From contig JASVEC010000027.1 of NCBI GenBank assembly GCA_030770535.1, positions 62,001-126,000 of the forward strand: 64,000 nt of DNA, written 5' to 3'. Under the pieces are notes generated by a model. That model was given only the letters and a program-made list of their open reading frames with translations, made no database searches and had not been told where the DNA came from. This stretch comes from Batkoa obscura. Lineage: Eukaryota. The translations under genes were made by a program, and so were the position numbers. This document shows positions 2,118 to 51,873 of the stretch, piece after piece; positions within the stretch are counted from its first letter, which is position 1, and each line of letters starts with the position of its first letter.

Positions 2118-4121
2118 TTGAGTCTTAAAAAAATACGTGATCAAGAAATTAATCAAAGAACAATTATAAATTTCCAAAGCTATTTTTTTGTAAAAAAAAT
2201 TCAAGAGATGCAGCTCAAAATATTAGAATATGAAGCTACAGCAGCTGGGATATGCAAGAGGAAGGCAAAAATAAAGAAAAGAGCCTTAATAGAGGATATG
2301 AATGCTAGAATGACCGAATTGGATGCTACATTTGATCATTTGGTTCTTTATTTTAACCAGATCAGCTCGATTTCAATACAAAACAGTTCAATTGAATATA
2401 ATGCGCAAGATCTGTTAACCTTAATTAAATTAAAGAGTTATTTACAATGGATAACTAATCAATTGAGGCAGATACAACATGCTAAACCAACTTCAAAACT
2501 TCACCTTTTAAATCAAAAATGTATAGCGTTGACGGAATCCAAAATACAAAGCTTCGATATATTACTAAGCGATTATTTTAAATTCAATGGAAGGTATATC
2601 TATGATTTAAGGAATCGAGCAGGCCGTGGGGCTGAGCATGTAGGTATAGTATTGAACAGTATGGATTTTGGAACTTTGTTACAGAGTGGCTTAAACGCAC
2701 TTGAGTGTCGATTGTATGACACTGGGCTCTATTTTAGTAGAGAAGAGGTACTCACTATATTATCAACCAAAGAACCAAACTTTCAATCTCACGTGATGGT
2801 AGCTTCCTTTTGTGTATTTTATTTATCTCTTAATGACGCTGGGTTCCTGACCATGTTTAAAAAGAGTTATTATGAAGCGTGTAAGTCCATTTATCAAGTT
2901 TATAATGAAGTTAGTTTTGTAAATTTGAAAAGCTTAATGGTGTTGACATCATTGACATTTTATGAATCAGATACTGCGTTGTTAAAAAAGATTTCAATGC
3001 CCTTATTGAATATGGCGTATTCATTAGGGCTGAATAAAAGGATTGAAAATAGGTTATTGATGGATCAAAGTGAGGATGTAGAACTTTATCTACATAAAAG
3101 GATAACATGGAATTGTATAAGAGCATTTTTTGTCACAAACAATATGTTGTTGTCGTCTCTACCTTCGGTTGGGGATTTTGAAGTCAAAGGATTGGAGTTT
3201 GAGCAGTTGCGAGTTTTGATTCAAAGTCACTCGATGGATACTTGGTTGCTAAAATTTTTGGATTGCTTTCGTATTCAGTTACACGAAATTGTTATTGTAC
3301 TGTCAAACCATATGAAGAACATTAAAAGAAATTATAATCAATTGGAGGCTATAACCTACTATCAGGCTAGACTACCAATAGAAGTTTATAGTAAGATGCA
3401 AAGCACAATAAAAGTATATTTCATGCCTTCCGTCCGATTCTTAAGAAAAGAGCTTAATGAGATGAATCAAGGAAGTATTAGCATCACTAAATATTTTTGT
3501 CAGTTTAAAAATCAAGGTTGCAAAGTTCATCCTACTTTTCATCAGTTTAAAGAAAGCGTTTTAATTTATTATTTACAAATCATTTTAATTTATCCATTAA
3601 TTAATTATCATCCACAGCCTATTGATTTGGCAGCAGAGGAACTACTCATATTATTAGAGGCTGCTATTCGAATGTTTCATTTACTTCAAGCAAATACGTT
3701 TATTTATTTAAATCAAGTTTATCTCAATTCTCCTCAAAACCATAATGAAAGGTCGTTTCGACAACTTAAAGAATATCTAACCACCTGTCTCCCACCAATT
3801 GCAACTGAAGAATTCGAGGCTATGATTTATTTAAATGTAGCTTCATTACAGTTTGATTGTTATCTGTATCCATTATTTACTTTTCTATTAGTTTTATCTT
3901 CAAATCAACTACATTTATTATCACAGATAAGCAAAAAATATAAACAAAATATCAAACATAAAATTGTTCAAATCCTTAAAGTCTTAAAAATTATTAACCA
4001 TATTAAAAAACCCAAGATGCAATTTGACATTACTCATGTGATTGATAAGGCTCTAAGGTTCAGCAGGCACTTTCCATTGCAGCAAGAGGATGAGGTTGAG
4101 TGGGAGGAGTATCTAAACTAA
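2118..4121 (+). CDS. Fungal transcription-factor middle-homology-region (MHR/Fungal_trans)-like protein; start uncertain (TTG 2118, first ATG 2208)
   Basis: 667-codon ORF; LLNMAYSLGLNK...ELYLHKRITWNCI resembles the MHR motif AxxMAxxLGLH...E.RRRxWW; paralogous to 4060-5970. Confidence 0.55.
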   Translation: MSLKKIRDQEINQRTIINFQSYFFVKKIQEMQLKILEYEATAAGICKRKAKIKKRALIEDMNARMTELDATFDHLVLYFNQISSISIQNSSIEYNAQDLLTLIKLKSYLQWITNQLRQIQHAKPTSKLHLLNQKCIALTESKIQSFDILLSDYFKFNGRYIYDLRNRAGRGAEHVGIVLNSMDFGTLLQSGLNALECRLYDTGLYFSREEVLTILSTKEPNFQSHVMVASFCVFYLSLNDAGFLTMFKKSYYEACKSIYQVYNEVSFVNLKSLMVLTSLTFYESDTALLKKISMPLLNMAYSLGLNKRIENRLLMDQSEDVELYLHKRITWNCIRAFFVTNNMLLSSLPSVGDFEVKGLEFEQLRVLIQSHSMDTWLLKFLDCFRIQLHEIVIVLSNHMKNIKRNYNQLEAITYYQARLPIEVYSKMQSTIKVYFMPSVRFLRKELNEMNQGSISITKYFCQFKNQGCKVHPTFHQFKESVLIYYLQIILIYPLINYHPQPIDLAAEELLILLEAAIRMFHLLQANTFIYLNQVYLNSPQNHNERSFRQLKEYLTTCLPPIATEEFEAMIYLNVASLQFDCYLYPLFTFLLVLSSNQLHLLSQISKKYKQNIKHKIVQILKVLKIINHIKKPKMQFDITHVIDKALRFSRHFPLQQEDEVEWEEYLN

Positions 4122-5970
4122 ATTTATATTGAATTTCCTTAGTAAACTCATCGGACAATTTAAACTTAGCAATCGAGTTTTTAATGGTAACGTAAATTGG
4201 AGACATATTAAAGGTACTTTGAGCATCTTGTAAATCAACTAAAAGTTGGATGATGGATATAATTTCAAGTATACAATGTTGAAAATACTGAATTTTTTCC
4301 AAAGAGAAGAGAGAGTTTAATTGGTACTCTTTGACCGAAATGGCTATTAGAAAGATGTGAAACGCATGTAAAAGAGAATCCAATTGAATTGTCTTAAAGA
4401 TGAGTTGAGTTAAATGGACAGATAGTCGAGTGTAAATTGAATTCTGTTGGCGGTTTAAATAAAGTTGAATATTATGAATTAGACTGTTAGTTTTTGAATG
4501 TGAATTTAGTCGATTTACTACTTGTTGAAAATAATTGTAAGTTATTATTGAATAAATGGTGTGTATCTTGATAGCTACTTCGATCAATATAAGTACGTTT
4601 TTATTAGTAACAAAATCAGGGGTAGGTGCTGTGATGATTCCAGGAGCAATGATATAAATTTGAATCGTGTATATTAAAAGGCTATTCTTAATACTATGGT
4701 AATAAATTAATGAATCAGTAGCAGTGTCTTTAAAATAACATAAATAATCATTTAAGCTTTTAACTTTACATTTTAACTTCAATTGGTGATCTAAATAATT
4801 AAGTGATGGTATAAAGTAATTTAATAATATCACTTGTATTCTTTCAATACTATATCTCTTTTGATTTAAATTATATTGAGCCGTTAACTCATGATTAATA
4901 TTACTACAAATGATTAATAACATCTCTTGAATATGCAATCGAATCAAAGAAGCAGTATAGTTCAAATCGTTATTATATCGATCATTTAGCTGATATAAAC
5001 TATTCAATTTCAAATTATGCTCATTTAACTGTACCTTTAAACATTTATCCATCAAAAACTCTTGGTTCGTAAAATAGAATATAGCTATACTGTTCCACAC
5101 TTTCCATCTTTTAATAACCAGTTCGCTTTCACTCTTTGAGCTCGTTTCCAATTGTGATAAGTGAACTTGGTCTAACTGCAAAGCAGAAGCCATCCTAACA
5201 GCAATTGGAAATAATTTCCGAATTGTTTTAATATCTCCTTCGTTACATGCCATCTCATTACATAACATCAACATCCTCAACGTATCAAATCCGACCTGAT
5301 TAAAACTCTGATACATAAGCTTACACGCTCGTCCATAAACCATTTTAAATATAGTTTGAAACTGTACATTATCATAATGATATTGATTATAGCATCCAAA
5401 TACTGCCAAAGTAGTATAGTTCGCGAAAGTAGCTTTCTTTTGATGTAAATTGGTTAATAACTCATCAGGCTCAAACTGAAGCCCTGAGCCTTGAAATAGG
5501 AAGCGATAATGATGTAGGCCAGATTCGAGATAAGCCCCGTAATCAAAGCAGCCATCCTTGACATCTATGTGCTCTCCGCTTCTTCCGCTACGTGTTCTTA
5601 ATGCCATTATACTATCTGTATTTTCAGTTGTATATGCTGTTAGTAAGTTATCTATATTAGTTATATACTTCTGTTGTTCTGAAGTAATCTCACTATTGGT
5701 ATGAGCATTTAGCTGATTTATTATCCATAGTAAATAGTCTTTGATCTGCTTTAAGTGAGAGAAATTGGATTGAATTGTAGCTTGAGAGGTAGAAGTGGTA
5801 GCTATTATAGTTTGATATTGAGCTAACTTTTGTAGTGTCTGCTTTAATTCGGTTTCTAAGGCAGTTAGGCGGTGTTCAAGGGATTTAATATCAACTTTGT
5901 TAGTTGTTATAGATTTTAGTTTATCTTTTTGGATATCATGGATATACCTTTTGATCTTTAAAGGTTTCAT
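4060..5970 (-). CDS. Fungal TF MHR-like protein, paralog of 2118-4121
   Basis: 636-aa ORF with N-terminal coiled coil (KSLEHRLTALETELKQ) and IAVRMASALQL...ELVIKRWKVWNSI; LRTRSGRSGEH..FDYGAYLESGL matches LRNRAGRGAEH..MDFGTLLQSGL in the paralog. Confidence 0.6.
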   Translation of the reverse strand: MKPLKIKRYIHDIQKDKLKSITTNKVDIKSLEHRLTALETELKQTLQKLAQYQTIIATTSTSQATIQSNFSHLKQIKDYLLWIINQLNAHTNSEITSEQQKYITNIDNLLTAYTTENTDSIMALRTRSGRSGEHIDVKDGCFDYGAYLESGLHHYRFLFQGSGLQFEPDELLTNLHQKKATFANYTTLAVFGCYNQYHYDNVQFQTIFKMVYGRACKLMYQSFNQVGFDTLRMLMLCNEMACNEGDIKTIRKLFPIAVRMASALQLDQVHLSQLETSSKSESELVIKRWKVWNSIAIFYFTNQEFLMDKCLKVQLNEHNLKLNSLYQLNDRYNNDLNYTASLIRLHIQEMLLIICSNINHELTAQYNLNQKRYSIERIQVILLNYFIPSLNYLDHQLKLKCKVKSLNDYLCYFKDTATDSLIYYHSIKNSLLIYTIQIYIIAPGIITAPTPDFVTNKNVLILIEVAIKIHTIYSIITYNYFQQVVNRLNSHSKTNSLIHNIQLYLNRQQNSIYTRLSVHLTQLIFKTIQLDSLLHAFHIFLIAISVKEYQLNSLFSLEKIQYFQHCILEIISIIQLLVDLQDAQSTFNMSPIYVTIKNSIAKFKLSDEFTKEIQYKFSLDTPPTQPHPLAAMESAC

Positions 5971-8530: not shown

Positions 8531-9208
8531 ATGCTTGTACGCTTACTTAAACACTTTCCTAGAGTATCTTTTTTAACTAAATTTCAACCCATTACCTTAT
8601 TATCAATTCGAAAAATGAGTGATGATAATTATATGAAGATGTTAAATAATAGCAATAATTTTGAGTTTAAAAAAACAGCCGATTCAACTAGTGATAAAAA
8701 TGATAAGTTTGGTGATATTAAAGAAGCCAAATGGTTAAATGGAATATTAAAAAAAGAAAAAGAGATTTCTGTTTCTAATGAAGACGATTTGGGCTTGGAA
8801 AATATCCTAGGATATTTAACTAAAGTATCTAATGGAATAACCTATTATTCAGAAGCGGACTTTGAATTTGAAAAATTTAGTTTATTAAATTTGAGATTAA
8901 ATCAACTTCCAACAGAAATCGAGTTTTTGAAATTGGTTAAAGAGAAAGCTGGTAATGAAACTGAAAATTTGGAGCAATTTGACGTAAAAAAACAAAGTTT
9001 ACAACAGTTTATTGATAAGTCTACAGAGGATGAAGAATTGACTGAATTGTTTGATAAATTAAAAGAGATGAGTAGTGAGGAAAATTTGGAAATCGCTGTT
9101 TATACATTAAATGATAAACAATCTGTTTATAGTTATCATTTTATCTCAATGTTGATTAAAGAAGAAGAAGCTATTGTTGGTTTAGTTACTTTAGAGGTAC
9201 AGAGCTAG
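8531..9208 (+). CDS. NuiA (nuclease A inhibitor)-like protein with predicted mitochondrial presequence
   Basis: Intronless 225 aa. Residues 1-28 are R/K-rich with no acidic residues. ILGYLTKVSNGITYYSEADFEFEKF and terminal IVGLVTLEVQS align with recalled NuiA ILEQLKQASDGLLFMSESEYPFEVF and terminal LAGISTKVVET. Confidence 0.7.
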   Translation: MLVRLLKHFPRVSFLTKFQPITLLSIRKMSDDNYMKMLNNSNNFEFKKTADSTSDKNDKFGDIKEAKWLNGILKKEKEISVSNEDDLGLENILGYLTKVSNGITYYSEADFEFEKFSLLNLRLNQLPTEIEFLKLVKEKAGNETENLEQFDVKKQSLQQFIDKSTEDEELTELFDKLKEMSSEENLEIAVYTLNDKQSVYSYHFISMLIKEEEAIVGLVTLEVQS

Positions 9209-41163: not shown

Positions 41164-43145
41164 TCAAGGTATCAAATCATTATTAGCCTGCTGGAAATAA
41201 TCACTTTTTACAGTATTAAAACTTTTACTTTTTATATCATAATTTAACATAACATCGTCCATAAAATCAAAATTTAGCTTACTAATCATTTTCTTTTCGT
41301 TATTTTTCAACTCTTTCTGTTCACTCACTTCCATGTTTTTACTCATTTGGTTTAATAAATGGCAATATAAATAATGATATTCTTCTAAATAAATAAACTC
41401 CTTTTTTTCTATTATCTCTCTTGTTAATACATTATCCTCATCTGCAATTAAATTGGCTACTAACTTTTGGTATATCTTACTCATTATTACTAAATTGCAT
41501 ATCAGCTCGTCCTTATTATTATCGTTTAATATGTTATGATTGTTTTTTATTATTTCTGATTCAAAGTCTTTAACTAATTGTTCCCTAGTTTGACTAAACT
41601 TATTTTGTTGTAATTTAATTTTATAATTAGCATGAAGATTTTCTATCCTTTTATACAATACAAAGGAGCCTAGTTCGGTACCTATAGATATCAAATAGGT
41701 TGCTGCTACTAACCCTAAGAGTGCATACACAATAAATACAATTTTCCCCTGCAAAGTCTTGGGTGTTATATTACCATATCCGATCGTTGTAAACGAGACA
41801 AAGCAAAAATTAAAAGATTCAAAATAGGTCCAATTTTCTGAGTACATAAAAATTACTCCACCTAAAAACCTAGATAAAAAAGTTTAATATTGTACTACTA
41901 TATATTATTAAATTTATTATTATTTACCAAAATAATAGTAAATAAATAATTGCAAAGATAAATTGTCGTTTTATAATTATCAATTTTTCCTTATTTACTA
42001 GTTTACGCTTTTTTCTCCGAATAAAACTGGCATTTTTATAATCCAATTTAGAATTCAATAAGGTGATAATTTGACATTGGTTGCTATTGTATTGGTCATT
42101 ATTGATTTGACCACTATTATTTATATTTTCACTTTCGTTGTTCTCATTTTCTTCAATGTCCTTTATCTTGTTTTTTTTTCTATTATCTTCGATCTCTTTC
42201 AATTTTAATAAAAACTTTGTTTCTATTTTTTCAAGTAATGCAATTCTTATTGCATTAACAAATAAACCCATGAATACGATACCAACAAGTGCGTAAAAAA
42301 ATAAGAATATTTGCGAACTTTGATTATTGGGAAATACGTCTCCAAATCCAATAGTTGTATTTGTTACTATATAGCAATAATAATATTAGTACATATATCA
42401 ATTTCTTATTGTTGCATGGGTTACCCAAAATAAAATAAAGTCCGTCAACAAAGCCCCAATCTTCAAGGATACAAAATATTAGAGTGCCAATTTTACCCCA
42501 AACTGTATTTAAAATTAGATAAATTATAAACATTCTTTGTTTGTTTACTATTCCACTATTCTTATTTATTAAACGATTATTCTTGAAATAATCAATCATC
42601 AAAAATAATATTGATATTGTTGATATTGCTATACCAATTAAATTAAGTATAAGATTATAATAATATTTTTGCCATCTCTCATAATATATTATTATTGAAA
42701 TTATTATACATATTACTATAAATTTTAATTAACATATTATCATATGGTGCTCTATATTAAACTTGCCATGTAAAGATAAGAATACTACTGTTAGCAAGGT
42801 ATTACTTCGAATCTTTCTTTCCCAAAACCTAAATAGTAGCGTAATAGTACCGACTATTTGAAACATGATAGCTAATGATAAGCAAGCGATGTTGGCTAAC
42901 AAAAAAATGAATAAAGTTTACTATATCTACTTCAATAACTTGCCATTATAGATCTGATATTGCTCCTCACTCAAACTTTCTAAGCTGATCCAGTTGCCTT
43001 CCAATGGCGGTATTGTGAGTATAAGAGAAAGTGGTGTGACTATACCAACGAGCGTAGGCAAAATTCTTAGTTCTGGGTGCTTTACCTTATAGTTGTCTTT
43101 ATTATTGTCATTATCATTATTATTTTTGAAGTCGTAAAATAGCAT
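41164..43145 (-). CDS. TOK1: TOK-type two-pore outward-rectifier K+ channel, copy 1 (5 exons)
   Basis: Pore loops TTIGFGD and FTTIGYGNITP, with four extra N-terminal TM segments. Confidence 0.85.
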
Positions 43146-44146
43146 TTAAATAATTAAAAGGAAAACCTTTCATTCTTTATAATGATTTTTATTACCAATC
43201 TCCCATTTATATACCTAAAACATTGTTTCGGTTAATAAAAAATAGGCAATTTATGATCTAAACTGAATATGTAATTTTAGTAATGAAATTAGTTAAGTAT
43301 GCTACAAACAACAAGTTGACTTTAAAGTATTAATATTCTAACCTCTTATATCTACTTCTAAATTTTTATATAATATATTTATTAACGTGCCGTATATAGA
43401 CATCCGTGTATTAGTTTTGCCAAGAATAGTTAAAGCGCTTAAATTTTAAACCATATGGGAATGCCTTATCTGGTTTCATCTGTTTGTTTACTTTTTGTTC
43501 TACATGAATTTGAGAAATAATTATTAGTAAATACTGAAACGAAAAAGATGTTCTAATTAAAAACAATGACTTTTGATTAAAGTGTAGTCTATTTTGGCTC
43601 ATTTTTATTTTGGTTAGTTTTGAATTAGTAAATACTTCAATTTAACTAAATTTATACCATTTTTAACTTTTCATGGCTATAGCAAGGAGAATTTTGAACA
43701 AACTTGCAAATTTTTTTAAATAACGGATTCAAAACAAAAGTAAATAAAAATAAATTTTTTTAGCATAAATTAGTAAATTATTGTCAAAGCTATGAAAATT
43801 CCCGCTACAAATATTCATTTTTTCAATTTTAATTGTATCATTATTGGAATTTTTTACTTTTAAGATAATGTGATGGGTTAAAAACTATATTGGAATAAAA
43901 CATAGGTTAAAAAAACTTTGGTAAAATTGGATAAAATAAAATTTTGTGTTTTTTAAACTACTCATTAAGAATGTTTAGTAATCTCTATTTAATTTTTTAT
44001 TTATGTGCGTAATATTTAACTTTTTAATAGTATTGAAAATTAATTCTCAATTCTTGATGAATAATAAGAGAACAATAAAGAAAAAAGTCAACAAAATGAT
44101 ATAGTTGATAGGTTTAATTTGGCATTTGAACTAACTTTTAAGTTTT

Positions 44147-46141
44147 TCAAGCTAAAGAGGAATTAATAGCTTGTTGAAAATAATAACTTCTTTCAGAATA
44201 ACAGCTCATTCTTTCTGTATCATAATTTAACAAAACGTCATCCATAAAATCAAAATTTAACTTATTGATCATCTTCTCTTCGCTATTTTTTAACTCTTTC
44301 CGTTCTTTTAATTCCATTTTCTTACTTGTTTGACTTAATAAATGGCAATATAAATAATGATACTCTTCTAAATAAGCAAATTCTTTTTTATCTGTTATTT
44401 CTTTTGTCAGCACGCTATCATAGTCTACAATTAAATTAGCTACTAATTTTTGATATATCTTACTCATCACTACTAAGTTTAATACCAACTCGTCTTTATT
44501 ATCATGGTTCAATATGTTATCATTATTTTTTAATATTTCTCTTTCAAATTCTTTAACCAACTGCTCTCTCGTTTGGCCAAATTTATTTTGTTGTAATTTA
44601 ATTTTATAATTAGCATGAAGATTTTCTATCCTTTTATACAATACAAAGGAGCCTAGTTCGGTACCTATAGATATCAAATAGGTTGCTGCTACTAACCCTA
44701 GTATTACATACACAATAAACATAACCTTTCCGTATGGTGTTTTGGGTGTTATATTACCATATCCGATCGTTGTAAACGAGACAAAGCAAAAATTAAAAGA
44801 TTCAAAATAGGTCCAATTTTCTGAGTACATAAAAATTACTCCACCTAAAAACCTAGATAAAAAAGTTTAATATTGTACTACTATATATTATTAAATTTAT
44901 TATTATTTACCAAAATAATAGTAAATAAATAATTGCAAAGATAAATTGTCGTTTTATAATTATCAATTTTTCCTTACTTACTAATCTATGTTGGTTTTTT
45001 CTGATATAAGTGGCATTTTTATAATCCCAATTTGAACTCAATAAAGCAATAATAGGATTTTGATCACTATCATTTAGGATATTACTATTTTGATCGCTAT
45101 AATCTACACTTCCATTTTCAATGCTTTTCCCTCCGTTGTTTTTTGTCTTGTTTTTTTTTCTATTATCTTTTATCTCCTTTAATTTTAATAAAAACTTTGT
45201 TTCTATTTTTTCAAGTATAACTACTCTTATTGAGTTTATAAATAAACCCATAAATATGATACCAATGATCGCATAAAAAAACAAAAATATTTGGGAACTA
45301 AGATTACTAGGAAACATATCCCCAAATCCAATAGTTGTATTCGTTGCTATATAAGATAATATTAATACAAACATTGTTTTGATTGTTATATAGCTTACCT
45401 AAAATAAAATAAAGTCCATCTACAAAATTCCAATTTTCAATGGTACAGAACACGATGGTACCAATTTTACCCCAAACTGTATTTAAAATTAAATAAATGA
45501 TTAACATTCTTTGTTTATTTATTATTCCACTGTTTTTATTCAATAAATAGTTGTTTCTGAAAAAATCAACTGTTAAAAAAATTATTGATATAGCTGAAAC
45601 CGATACGCCAATTAAATTGAATACAAGTCGGTTATTATATTTCTGCCAACTTTCATAGTAGATTATTATTGATACTGAGATAAATGAAACTACATAAGGC
45701 TAATTAGCGTTATATTAAGTGGTATATTATCTTGAGCTTACCATGCAAAAATAAGAATACTACTGTTAGTAAAGTATTGATCCTAACTTTCTTCTCCCAA
45801 AATCTAAGTAGCAGTGTGACCGTGCCAATTATTTGGAATATGATAGCTAAAGATAAACAAGCGATATTAACTAATATACAAAGTAAAATAAGGCTATTAT
45901 ATTATTCTTATTATTCTTATTATTCTAATTTACTTTTATAGTTATAGTGTTGGTCTGCGTTCAAATTTTCCTTAACTAACCAGTTACCCTCCAATGGAGG
46001 TATTGTGAGTATAAGAGAAAGCGGTGTAATTATACCAACAAACATAGGCAAATATCTTAGCTCCGGATGTTTTATTTTATAGATATTTTCATCTTTATCT
46101 TTATGATTGTTGTTCTTATTTTTAAATTTACCAAATATCAT
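44147..46141 (-). CDS. TOK1: TOK-type K+ channel, copy 2
   Basis: TTIGFGD and FTTIGYGNITP; same exon layout as copy 1. Confidence 0.85.
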
Positions 46142-47294
46142 TCTATCAATTAAATATTACTTTCTTGTTTTTGAGCATCTTTTATAATGTTTATTATTAT
46201 TCACGTTCTTATTTATATGCACCCCATCATTTTTTGGGTTAATAAAATAGTCGATTGTGATCTAAACTATAGATGTAAATTTAGTAAAAAAATTACTTTG
46301 AGCACATTAAAAATAAACAATAGTTGATAGTTATAAATAGAACATTAAATTTATTTTAACTTTAGCTATTTTTATGCTTTTAAATAGTATAGCTTCCTCA
46401 TTACAAATATGATATACTTACGGCTATTTCAACTCTTTTTTGAGCTAATTAGCTATGGTTTATATATTTAAATATTTTTTTAACTGATTTTTTTAAAGCC
46501 TAACTCCCATGTTTTGTTAGAACTAGCATAAATTTTACCCTTGAATAAACAATTAATAAATTCGTAAAAGAATTGAAATACCTTTAGCTGTTCGTTTAAA
46601 GATAGGATTTAGACTAAATTTTAGCTAAAACCTAAGGGGTTGCTTTGAAAAATTAGTGATACTACCTGTCAAGCTAAACATCGTCAGACTTTATGATTTG
46701 CCACCTTATTATTTTGAGATTTTAATTATAGAGGTATTGCCAACTTATTAAAAGTTCAAGTGAAAACAATAGTGTTTTAAAGATTTTGGCTACGATTATA
46801 CTGAATCAATCATACTAATAGAAAATAAAGGTTGTTCAAACCGAAAATCTAAACAAGTATTTTATAGTAAATTTCTATCATTTATTAAAATTTAACTTAT
46901 TACAATACTATCAAGTAGTATTATTTATTTGTGCTTTAAAAGTATTTTAATTAAAATCACAACTTATCATGGTAAAGCTTTTAAAGTGTAAATCTTTTTA
47001 AAAATCTTTAAATTAGAGCATTTGTTTATTTAAGCTTTTAAATTAATATCACTAATAAGTCTACAAAAGATAGTATTGTTTTATCCATATAAAACACAAA
47101 AGGATATAAATAAACTCCACTTTCAATTTAATAGCCTTTTTATCTTGATAAAACTGTTAGCCAAATAATCTGAATTGTATCTGATATGAATAACAAAATG
47201 AAAATCTTTTAAAAATAAAGTCAGTTTATTTTTAAAATTATCATTATTATTTAATTTTTACAAAGATATAAATATGAAGCAAATGTGAGTATGT

Positions 47295-48722
47295 TCAAAG
47301 CCCTCTAAGGAAGTGATCCAATGTAATACCTGAATCAGATTCATGGAAAATCTCAGATTCATCATTTTTTACCATGTCTGTGTCTTCTTCACTGTGAATA
47401 CTCGGTTGAGTATTAGATTCATGTTCGCAACTGTCATCTGCCAGAGGGGTGAATGAGGTGATGGTATTAGGTGTCATAGGAATAGCTGTGGATTGAAAGC
47501 TATTATCAGATGTTGATGGATATTTTATTTCTCCCAAACTAATATCGACTTCTGGAATACTACATGCCAATGATCTGGTTACTTGATTTTCTTGACTAAT
47601 ATCACTTATATGGTCGTCCTTTTCTGGAACAGGAGGGGGAAGCGGATCATTTGTAACATTTAAGTAAACCGAAGACTTGTGCATTTTTAACTCAATGGGC
47701 GGGTTTTCTTCTTTCAATGTTGTGCTTGAATGTGTTGAATGCATGTTTCTTATCGATTTTATAGCAGCAAACAAAGAAGGATCTAGCAAAAATGCAAAAA
47801 GATTCAATAGTCCTGGAGAATCTAATTTGATAATTGTTAATATAAAATACAGTATATATTATTTTTATAATTACCAGTTCCAACAAAAGACCACCATACT
47901 AAAACTTCATGTGGGCTGGTTGGATTATGATAACTGTAAATTTGAGAGGCAATATATCCAATCTGGGTCAAAACAGGGATAAGGCAGTATAATGATCTAT
48001 ATATCTTATTAGTATGTTGTAAATTAAAAATTGATTTAATATTACATTCTTCTTATTAACCTTTTTAAACTTTTTTGCACTTTTTCATTGATATTAACTC
48101 TTTTTCCTTTTTCATCAGTATAGTATTCTGGTTCACATATACGATTTATAATTGTAACTTTGCGATTCAAATTAAAAATCACTATAATAACAATCAATGT
48201 GCAATAAAAACATCCAGCTAATACCCAACTATGATATGTAGCCCATATAAATATTTGTGTGTTAGGAGAAAGAGAATCTTTGTAAGTACAGTATAGGGTA
48301 TCTTCATCAAAACCTAATTGATCCATAGCTAACGGTACCGCCATTATACCAAATGCACTGACTATAGAAACACACCAATACCACTTTTCCCATTTACTAT
48401 TGAACCTTAAACCATTGACAAATGTAAGTTGTAAATTTAATGCTATACATATTGTCAAGAACATATATAATAATGTAAACACAGGTATCAAATAAGCCAA
48501 TATCACACATTCAACTCCAGGGGTATCAACAAATATATATAATAATATTGATACTGCTTTTAGGAAATCAACAATTGAAATAGCTAAAGTAAATCTCAAA
48601 GAGACACGATCCATTAAACGGCGGTCGATTACATATACAAATACCATCATTGTAATTACTATTATACTAGCAACTGCAGATATCACATTTAGGGCAATAC
48701 TCAATCCCCCACCAAAATCCAT
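47295..48722 (-). CDS. 7-TM GPCR-like receptor (cAMP-receptor/Git3-like), 3 exons
   Basis: TM series with DRVSLRF, C in ECL1, CIALNLQL, LYC in ECL2, exon 2 IIILPYPCFDP...GLLLEL and exon 3 SPGLLNLFAFLLDP, followed by a S/T-rich tail. Confidence 0.75.
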
Positions 48723-49865
48723 TTCTGTATTTTATTATATTTTAGAATAAAAATAAAATTCATTTTATGTTCATATGTATATTTATATATATTACTCAAA
48801 ATAAATTTAAAAAGGTCTAAAGAACGGAACTAAATCATATTAAAAGGTACTAGAACTATTAGCTCATTGCATATATTTTATTTTATTATTTAATGGGTAG
48901 CAATTGTTGAATAACTTGGAACCTCTTTTTAATTTAAGATTTGAAACTAAATTAACTTAGATTATAAGTACTTTGATATAAAAATAATATCAATAGATTT
49001 TATTCTAATAAATTTAGGTTTAATGAAAGTATTTATAACTACTTATAGGAACTGGCATATTTATATTACTATTTATCAATCGTAGTATACACCTTTTTTA
49101 TAAATTAACTACCCCAAAGTAAAATCCCGATTAGATAATTACAAAGAAAGGTTTGGAAGAGTGAATCTAATACTTCTAGGCAAATTTTCGAATTTTTCAA
49201 TAAAAAGCAAACTTATTTGAACAAAAAACTAAATATTGACACCTTTTACTATTTTTTAATTGTTTTTTGTAACTTTTATTGATTTACTTGATCTGCTTTG
49301 ATGTTTTTCGTTCTAATAACGAAGTATTTTTTAGAGCTATTAGAAGGTTGATATTTAGTTTTCATTTCTAAGTGTTCAATTAAGTTATCACTTCAGGAGA
49401 GTTACTTTCTAAAAAAAGTGTAGATTATAATTTTTTTGAAATTTATATCCCTGAATAGGGATAAATTATAGCATAAAAAAGACATACGAACTATATTCCC
49501 AACATTATTTATAAGAATTTAGTAGTTCGATTTCAAATAGAAATACTAGTATGAGGGAAACCTTGTCAAGAATGCTTTTTAACTTTTTTACCATATATTT
49601 ATTAAATCATTTTAGATTATAAAGTAATCATTTTAATTTATTATTGATAAACTTGCCACATTAACTTAAACTAACCTAAAATATGATTTTTTATGATCAG
49701 GTTAAGTATTTTTGAAAATAACTTGGTAATTATGATTGCTTAAAAATGAATAAGACATTGATAAAATATAGGGATAGTGATCAAATTAATTTAAATAGAT
49801 ATCAAATCAAAATCAAAATCAAAATCAAAATTAAAGACACATTCTTTTTATTAAATAAGCATTCC

Positions 49866-51873
49866 TTAAGGGACCAAATCGTTATCCGCCTGATCCATAT
49901 AACCACTTTCTGGATTATTATCATCGGAATGTAAAGTATCGTACATGAAATCAAAATCTAACTTACTAATAATTTTGCTTTCGCTTTTTTTCAACCTTCT
50001 CTTTTTATTCAATTCCATTTTTTTACTCGATTGATTCAATAAATGACAATATAAATAGTGATATTCTTCTAAATATACAAACTCTTCCTTATCCATTATT
50101 TCTTTTGTTAACACACTATCATGATCTGCTATCAAATTGGCTACTAGTTTTTGATATATTTTGCTCATTGCTAATAAGTTATATATTAACTCGTCCTTAT
50201 TATCATTTGTTATACTATTATAATCAGTCACAATTTCTCTTTCAAACTCTTTTATTAATTGTTTTCTTTTGTGATTAAACCTATTATGATGTAATTCCAT
50301 TTTATAATCAGCGTGTACATTTTCTATCTTCCTATGCATGGTAAAGGCTCCCAATTGAGTACCGACGGATATTAAATAGGTTGCTGCTACTAGGCCCAAT
50401 ATAGCATAGCCAATAAATATGATTTTACCGTGGAATGTCGTAGGTGTAATATTCCCATACCCAATTGTCGTAAATGAAATAAAACAAAAGTTAATGGCAT
50501 CAAAGTAAGGCCAATCTTCTGAATACATAAAAATAACCCCACCCAAAAACCTATAAATTCAAATCAATTAGTTTTAGTTTATAACACTATAGTTTTTACC
50601 AAAACAACAATAAATAAATAACAGCAAAAAAAAACTGGCGCCTTATAATGGTTGACCTTTCTTTATGAGCTAACTCATGTTGTTTTTTTCGAATAAAACT
50701 GGCATTTTTATAATCGAAATTAAAATTTAACAGATTGACAACACCGCTGTCTGTTTGATTCTTCATTCTTATATTTGTGTTATTCTTTTGACTGCTACCT
50801 ATTGTATTATCGCTCCTATTTTGATTACTGTTTATCGCATTTTCACTTTCATCGCTTTCACCTTCACTTTCATCACTTTCACTTTCGCTTTCATTGATAC
50901 GTTCTTTAGCACTCTTTTCAACCTCTTTCAATTTTTTCAAAAATTTATTTTCTATTTCTCCAAGCAGTACTATTCTTATTGAATTAATAAAAAGACCCAT
51001 AAACACAATTCCAATAAATGCATAAAAAAACAAGAATAGCTGTGAACTTTGATTGTTAGGTGTAATATCTCCAAACCCTATGGTTGCATTCGTTACTATA
51101 CGAAATAGAAAAGAATAAGTACAGATTTAAATTCATGTCATTCTGTAACTTACACAACACGAAATAAAGCCCATCCACAAACTCCCAGTCTTCAAGGATA
51201 CAAAATATGATGGTACCAATTTTACCCCAAACCGTGTTTAATATAAAATAAATTATTAACATTCTTTGTTTATTTATTATTCCACTATTCTTATTTATTA
51301 AATAATTACTTTTAAAATAATCTATTATCAAAAGTAATATCGATATCGCTGATATTGATATGCCAATTAAATTAAGTATTAATTTATAATAATACATTTG
51401 CCATCTTTCATAATATATTACTATTGAAGCTATTATAAATAAGACTAAATCAATTTGGTTAGTGGTATTTACTATATGAAATACATCACATTTACCATGT
51501 AAAGCTAAGAATACTATTGTTAATAATGTATTGATTCGAATTTTTTTCTCCCAAAATCGAAATAATAGTGCGATTGTGCCTATTACTTGAAATATAAAAG
51601 CTAATGATAAGCAAGCAACATCAGCTAATAAAATAAATAAAGTAATTGATATCAATATCATTATTATAATTTACCTTTGAAATCATGATAGTAATCGACG
51701 CTTAAGTTTTCCGTATTTACCCAGTTACCCCTTAATGGTGGTATTGTAAGTATGAGTGAAAGCGGAGTTATTATGCCTACTAAAGTTGGTAGATACCTCA
51801 GTTCTGGATACTTTATTTTTTGATTTTCTTTATTATTATCATGGTCTTTTTTATTCTTGAATTTGTTTAACAT
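49866..51873 (-). CDS. TOK1: TOK-type K+ channel, copy 3
   Basis: ATIGFGD and FTTIGYGNITP; more diverged paralog with an ESESD acidic insert. Confidence 0.85.

Follow-up and report, generated by a model that had tools for sequence, protein, structure and literature searches.

Does a fungus carry an inhibitor of its own mitochondrial nuclease and, if so, in which compartments would it act? This question is raised by an open reading frame (ORF) of Batkoa obscura at positions 8531–9208 (+) of a contig stretch of 64,000 nucleotides (the window), which an initial annotation had read as a mitochondria-targeted relative of NuiA, the nuclease inhibitor of Anabaena. NuiA acts by competitive inhibition (PMC5758888), and constitutive cytosolic NuiA has been described as insurance against the nuclease NucA (PMC13522737). 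In yeast, release of Nuc1 to the cytosol during sporulation is programmed and pro-survival, and Nuc1 attenuates dsRNA viruses (PMC6697816); survival with an active non-specific nuclease is therefore a real question. In the literature searched, from which subscription papers were mostly absent, we found no described fungal NuiA or Nuc1 inhibitor, and whether organisms other than Drosophila have EndoG inhibitors was a question that the EndoG structure paper did not settle (PMC2790893).

Here, we describe a fungal protein with a predicted NuiA fold and two predicted start codons, and we propose that it is a putative safety inhibitor of Nuc1/EndoG made in cytosolic and matrix forms, a proposal that we consider evenly balanced.

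The ORF and its genomic setting

As the initial annotation had claimed, the ORF is intronless and encodes 225 residues, the translation of 8531–9208 (+) being free of stop codons. It is flanked by a spliced short-chain dehydrogenase gene on one side and a spliced FIS1 gene on the other; a myosin-chitin synthase gene and an eIF3b-like gene also lie near it, and its GC content of approximately 27% is similar to that of the surrounding window. Two further features of the window were recorded in passing. The first is a convergent pair of intronless ORFs with overlapping 3' ends, at 2208–4121 (+, 637 residues) and 4060–5970 (−, 636 residues), which by eye resemble distant paralogues and have no Pfam match at E ≤ 0.001. 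The second is a set of three near-tandem two-pore potassium-channel-like genes at about 41164–51661 (−), with an Ion_trans_2 domain in the copy tested.

Family membership and relatives

The protein matches the Pfam family PF23151 (NuiA_2, 'NuiA-like') at 40.9 bits against a cut-off of 27, with residues 29–223 covering positions 1–154 of the 154-position model, but with the bacterial NuiA family PF07924 it scores 18.8 bits, under the gathering threshold of 22.1. Pairwise BLAST between NuiA and the 225-residue protein gave nothing significant (E = 42), so that homology to NuiA is visible with profiles only. A profile of 91 bacterial NuiA rows (55 mostly cyanobacterial proteins and 36 rows from Bacteroidota searches), from which the query was left out, scored it at 13.9 bits, a value matched by 0 of 1972 scored shuffles; the profile of the 55 mostly cyanobacterial rows was marginal at 6.6 bits, equalled by 19 of 1960 scored shuffles. 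With a profile of 80 fungal rows, drawn from metagenome loci among the matches listed, the score was 29.6 bits and none of 1918 shuffles equalled it. The NuiA-like identity put forward initially is thus upheld by the Pfam family, the shuffle-controlled profiles and the predicted fold described below, but finds no counterpart in pairwise BLAST similarity.

Only one close relative emerged: in Neoconidiobolus thromboides FSU 785, an Entomophthorales fungus, a hypothetical protein is identical at 215 of 225 residues (96%). Word-based homologue searches confirmed this protein alone, once among 289 candidates and once among 490, and three proteins at E ≤ 0.001 came out of a search through 1.84 billion representatives, namely this orthologue and two others, P0126 (32%) and P0127 (30%). 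The latter two exceed the PF07924 cut-off (28.3 and 25.1 against 22.1 bits); therefore, their branch, together with the Batkoa protein, bridges PF23151 and PF07924. Atlas placement put the protein nearest to PF23151-carrying clusters, which are commonest in Ascomycota, with a value of 0.89 that the tool itself grades as a lead only.

Additional fungal loci were gathered from metagenomes with a degenerate N-terminal motif, which misses the Batkoa protein itself. At least 116 metagenome loci matched; among the matches listed, the motif is preceded by a Met at a distance of one or two codons in 86, and 81 of these carry the family core motif, the other five ending or breaking off before it. The 81 listed loci correspond to 57 distinct ones, from which four with less than 150 nt upstream were left out to give 53 distinct loci. 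Two full-length proteins among the fungal loci listed score 195 and 188 bits with PF23151, and the metagenome relatives appear to be ascomycete-like. Scanning metagenomes with an alignment pattern confirmed none of 458 stretches, and a scan of viral contigs for homologues confirmed 0 of 6. From its sequence, we assign the Batkoa protein to PF23151 as a divergent member of this catalogued but unstudied fungal family.

A phylogeny, proposed at the outset, does group the fungal proteins: in a 34-row tree, five fungal rows lie on one side of a branch and 29 bacterial rows on the other, although support is modest (80/85) and the branches are long. This split, together with the shared N-terminal helix, fits a single old fungal lineage, without proving it or naming the donor. 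Contamination or a recent bacterial transfer was rejected on the window-like GC content, the spliced fungal neighbours and the fungal grouping in the tree; the Batkoa protein is a member of a fungal family and no recent bacterial import.

Predicted fold and contact residues

An AlphaFold2 model of residues 29–225, computed with a 103-row alignment, reached a pLDDT of 84 and a pTM of 0.77; from the single sequence, AlphaFold gave a pLDDT of 39.9. The model mixes sheet and helix and has five strands; its first helix is confident, its linker is loose and its core is confident from approximately residue 89 onward. The helix carries the motif M-S-D-D-x-Y-x-x-x-L-x-x-x-N of the fungal family (8615–8656, +), seen in both the alignment and the model, and precedes the low-confidence linker. 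The domain at residues 85–225 (8783–9205, +), for which Pfam, the profiles and the predicted structure indicate a NuiA fold, is acidic as previously described, with 30 D/E against 13 K/R. Structure comparison, which the initial annotation had recommended, ranks NuiA first with two programs, a match that is not fully independent because the 103-row alignment held bacterial NuiA rows: the first Foldseek match is 2O3B_B, NuiA in its NucA complex (E = 5.9e-6, TM 0.67 on target), the single match out of 500 to reach E ≤ 0.001, with free NuiA ranked second, and VIA-align over 48,161 chains places NuiA 1J57 first (Z 5.7, rmsd 4.5, 124 residues aligned). Maf1 comes next after NuiA in this fold matching, its VIA Z of 5.0 lying within 1 of the NuiA value. 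The Batkoa protein is predicted by this modelling to adopt the NuiA alpha/beta/alpha fold. A PDB sequence search gave three weak matches (I-CreI derivatives and a ribosomal protein), with NuiA absent from its matches; the fold lends these three no support and they were set aside.

The NuiA segments quoted in the initial annotation agree with the real NuiA of Nostoc PCC 7120 (135 residues, encoded by a gene on plasmid pCC7120alpha), and both residue correspondences claimed with them stand. NuiA Glu24, which we take to be a contact site with the nuclease, aligns with E108 (8852–8854, +), and this column is Glu in 90 of 91 bacterial NuiA rows. At the other end, the protein terminates in VQS, with Ser225 and the stop codon at 9203–9208 (+), and Ser225 is in register with NuiA Thr135. 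The C-terminal Thr of NuiA is described as binding the nuclease Mg2+, as a metal-bridging residue (PMC5587815, PMC2790893).

Readable C-termini are available for 25 of the 57 distinct fungal loci among the matches listed; 24 read VES and one VET, with a search pattern that favoured family-like ends and left the last residue free. A terminal ES, found in 24 of these 25 listed ends, occurs in only one of the 55 mostly cyanobacterial rows. P0127 ends in VQT and P0126 in VQTS, and Gln precedes the terminal Thr in four of the 36 Bacteroidota-search rows. As a separate observation, some NuiA proteins from the Bacteroidota loci L059–L095 end in QT or ETE. The second nuclease contact site of NuiA, presumably Asp75-Trp76, is represented by Asp/Glu-Trp in 86 of 91 bacterial rows; of the 25 readable fungal ends among the matches listed, 23 have an aromatic residue at a comparable position. 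In the alignment, no Trp stands at this column in the Batkoa protein, P0126 or P0127.

Leader and start codons

Residues 1–28 (8531–8614, +) had been interpreted as a mitochondrial presequence ending in an R-2-type cleavage site (R27-K28/M29). Their composition is as described, with 6 K/R and 0 D/E, and the best 11-residue helical hydrophobic moment is 0.89 per residue. Among 200,000 base shuffles of the 84 nt of the leader, 19% remained open; the charge pattern recurred in 1.1% of those open shuffles, and charge pattern and moment together in 0.008%. Among 262 further short stretches of 28 open codons that begin with ATG elsewhere in the window, seven share the charge pattern and none combines it with the moment. 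The leader contains no hydrophobic stop-transfer stretch, and no secretion signal was seen in residues 1–40, where the best 11-residue hydropathy is only 1.0. It is the same in the N. thromboides orthologue, with 0 of 28 positions changed against 10 of 197 elsewhere, a difference that is not significant alone. An intron within the leader was considered and rejected by eye, as the candidates were too short or yielded an immediate stop.

M29 (8615–8617, +) is better explained as a second start codon than as the residue behind such a site, since the PF23151 model begins at M29 and the records of the two next relatives, P0126 and P0127, start at its equivalent, without a leader. M1 (8531–8533, +) has a weak context (TTTTAC ATG, with T at −3), and four codons upstream of it lies an in-frame stop; M29 has a strong one (GAAAA ATG, with A at −3), and no other ATG lies between them in any frame. 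The matrix-presequence-like leader itself stands by its composition and by an arrangement that recurs across the family, but it would belong to an optional isoform, the main product being likely M29-started and cytosolic.

This arrangement was followed through the 53 distinct loci among the matches listed. Since related loci cannot be treated as independent, the numbers that follow exceed those of separate events: the in-frame sequence upstream of the conserved Met stays open for 50 codons or more in 49 of the 53, where shuffles predict 9.7, against 20 and 11 in the other two frames, and the 150 nt upstream are free of out-of-frame ATG in 50, against 19.5 expected. An in-frame upstream ATG is present in 27 of these listed loci, with 25 of the 27 leaders beginning net positive, and A at −3 is found at four of the 27 upstream ATGs versus 45 of the 53 internal ones. 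An Arg-x-aromatic-Ser-Thr-Thr-like motif, which we take to be a processing motif consensus and which was set after the data had been inspected, occurs upstream in frame in 16 of the 53 listed loci and in the other frames in 0 and 0. The remaining 26 listed loci have no upstream ATG. Fourteen of them offer at least 450 nt upstream, and nine of these 14 have ATT, ATA or ACG in frame within a context resembling GCMAYC (also set after inspection of the data), against two and five in the other frames; the candidate non-AUG starts mostly head Arg-rich peptides (L103, L105, L109, L113, L124, L128, L131, L138 and L170). In fungi, a weak AUG, often with U at −3, followed by a presequence and a strong downstream AUG is documented for dual-located proteins, among which near-cognate AUU or ACG starts interchange with the weak upstream AUG (PMC7049704). 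The open upstream frame and the weak and strong ATGs of the relatives make cytosolic and mitochondrial isoforms from two starts likely, and the occurrence of the same design in an Entomophthorales-type fungus suggests that it is old.

Nuclease genes near nuiA-like loci

In agreement with the earlier remark that no cognate nuclease is visible, tblastn with NucA found none at E ≤ 1 in the 64 kb window, and no nuclease gene lies in the 81 fungal loci listed, for which flanks of up to 1.5 kb were covered. With an EndoG-like viral-contig sequence as seed, the 120 of 465 matches listed were chlamydial-type, vertebrate or nameless proteins, none of them named as fungal, and scanning viral contigs by motif turned up 0 closer EndoG seeds. 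One viral contig (L306:1–636, −) encodes an EndoG-like nuclease scoring 191 bits for mitochondrial EndoG versus 76 for NucA, with chlamydial proteins as its nearest named relatives.

NucA lies within 3 kb at 53 of 57 cyanobacterial nuiA loci. In one Bacteroidota family, NuiA is present in 97 of 151 genomes, and a NucA-like gene lies within approximately 1.5 kb at 0 of the 37 Bacteroidota NuiA loci L059–L095. Since many bacterial NuiA genes have no NucA alongside, a NuiA fold need not have a partner from its own cell. Two further Bacteroidota loci, L065:1489–2412 (−) and L064:1060–1917 (+), encode a HIT hydrolase domain fused in frame to a NuiA domain, the L065 fusion scoring 65.9 bits with PF01230 and 117 bits with PF07924.

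Proposed function and alternatives

In the mechanism that we propose, most ribosomes would scan past M1 and produce a 197-residue cytosolic form from M29, and a minority would start at M1 to give a 225-residue precursor that would be imported into the mitochondrial matrix and lose its leader. As in NuiA, Ser225 would bind the Mg2+ at the catalytic centre of a beta-beta-alpha-metal nuclease, with E108 in the role of a substrate phosphate mimic. EndoG sits in the intermembrane space (PMC13522737), and while it is kept there the two inhibitor forms could guard the compartments on either side, where cytosolic RNA and mtDNA/mtRNA would be shielded from enzyme that leaks out or is mis-sorted, in a possible parallel to cytosolic NuiA guarding Anabaena against exported NucA. 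Given the predicted matrix and cytosol targeting, the target would lie inside the cell. Nevertheless, Nuc1 as that target is made less secure by the lack of a nuclease gene in the window and the fungal flanks, by the missing Asp/Glu-Trp second site in the Batkoa protein, P0126 and P0127, and by the matrix-type leader, which would not reach the intermembrane space where EndoG resides.

The same fold and the same two locations could instead serve another partner, either a different endogenous nuclease or a protein that is no nuclease and would dock on the NuiA/Maf1-like surface and on the N-terminal helix specific to the fungal proteins. This helix is strongly conserved in the fungal proteins and absent from bacterial NuiA, the second NucA-binding site is missing in the Batkoa protein, and the next fold match, Maf1, is a polymerase-binding protein. 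However, all 25 readable fungal ends among the matches listed keep a free terminal Ser/Thr in exact register with the metal-bridging Thr of NuiA, and the acid at the NuiA E24 position is kept, so we regard a partner other than Nuc1 as unlikely. A separate question is that of location. The M29 form alone might be made in Batkoa, with the leader untranslated or vestigial and the protein cytosol-only, which would be compatible with Nuc1 inhibition in the cytosol; the weak context of M1 and the recorded starts of P0126 and P0127 agree with this, but a charge and moment rare in the controls, a leader identical in the 96%-identical orthologue and an open upstream frame conserved across the family render it rather improbable. 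Least convincing is an orphan immunity protein that blocks foreign beta-beta-alpha-metal nucleases from bacteria, endosymbionts or competitors, or secreted ones of the fungus itself, for even though NuiA without linked NucA is common in Bacteroidota and no nuclease is linked in the window or in the fungal loci listed, the lack of a secretion signal in residues 1–40 and the difficulty of squaring an outside enzyme with a conserved mitochondrial-type leader make it very unlikely.

The two-compartment inhibition of Nuc1/EndoG may also extend beyond Batkoa. More tentatively, with somewhat less confidence than an even judgement, we suggest that an ancient nuclease-immunity protein of bacterial type has been retained in fungi from Entomophthorales to ascomycetes as a general Nuc1/EndoG inhibitor, which one gene would supply to the cytosol and the matrix by leaky scanning (from AUG or AUU/AUA/ACG according to lineage) and which would set the threshold of the cell-death, mtDNA-degrading and antiviral actions of Nuc1.

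Comparison with known systems

The Batkoa protein shares its N-terminal motif, its core motif and its V-x-S terminus with the proteins of PF23151, which are mostly ascomycete and uncharacterised. Relative to the full-length fungal members, it is 24–25% identical, with a longer linker, a VQS end and no second-site Trp, and the PF23151 model omits the leader. The family itself is already catalogued; what is new is a member that diverged early, the numbers on the two-start design and the candidate starts other than AUG. With its two contact residues and two starts, all of them predicted, the family offers a small, expressible candidate that is testable in few experiments.

NuiA of Nostoc/Anabaena PCC 7120 (PF07924; 2O3B chain B, 1J57) resembles the Batkoa protein in the predicted fold, the Glu24 equivalent, the terminal hydroxyl and the acidic domain. 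There are also clear differences. In PCC 7120, nucA and nuiA adjoin, whereas the Batkoa gene has no adjacent nuclease gene; the Batkoa protein adds an N-terminal helix and an optional leader and is without the Asp-Trp site, and its inhibitory activity is one that we infer.

Fungal dual-AUG genes, such as those of the Cryptococcus aminoacyl-tRNA synthetases, likewise combine a weak upstream AUG, a presequence and a strong downstream AUG (PMC7049704). Their dual starts were shown by ribosome profiling (PMC7049704), whereas the use of both starts in Batkoa is predicted from the sequence.

Lastly, Drosophila EndoGI (PDB 3ISM), which the EndoG structure paper reports only from Drosophila, has a helical HEAT-repeat fold unrelated to that of NuiA (PMC2790893), whereas the Batkoa model is a mixed sheet-and-helix domain. 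The two proteins are alike in their proposed role, that of an EndoG inhibitor kept in another compartment as a safeguard.
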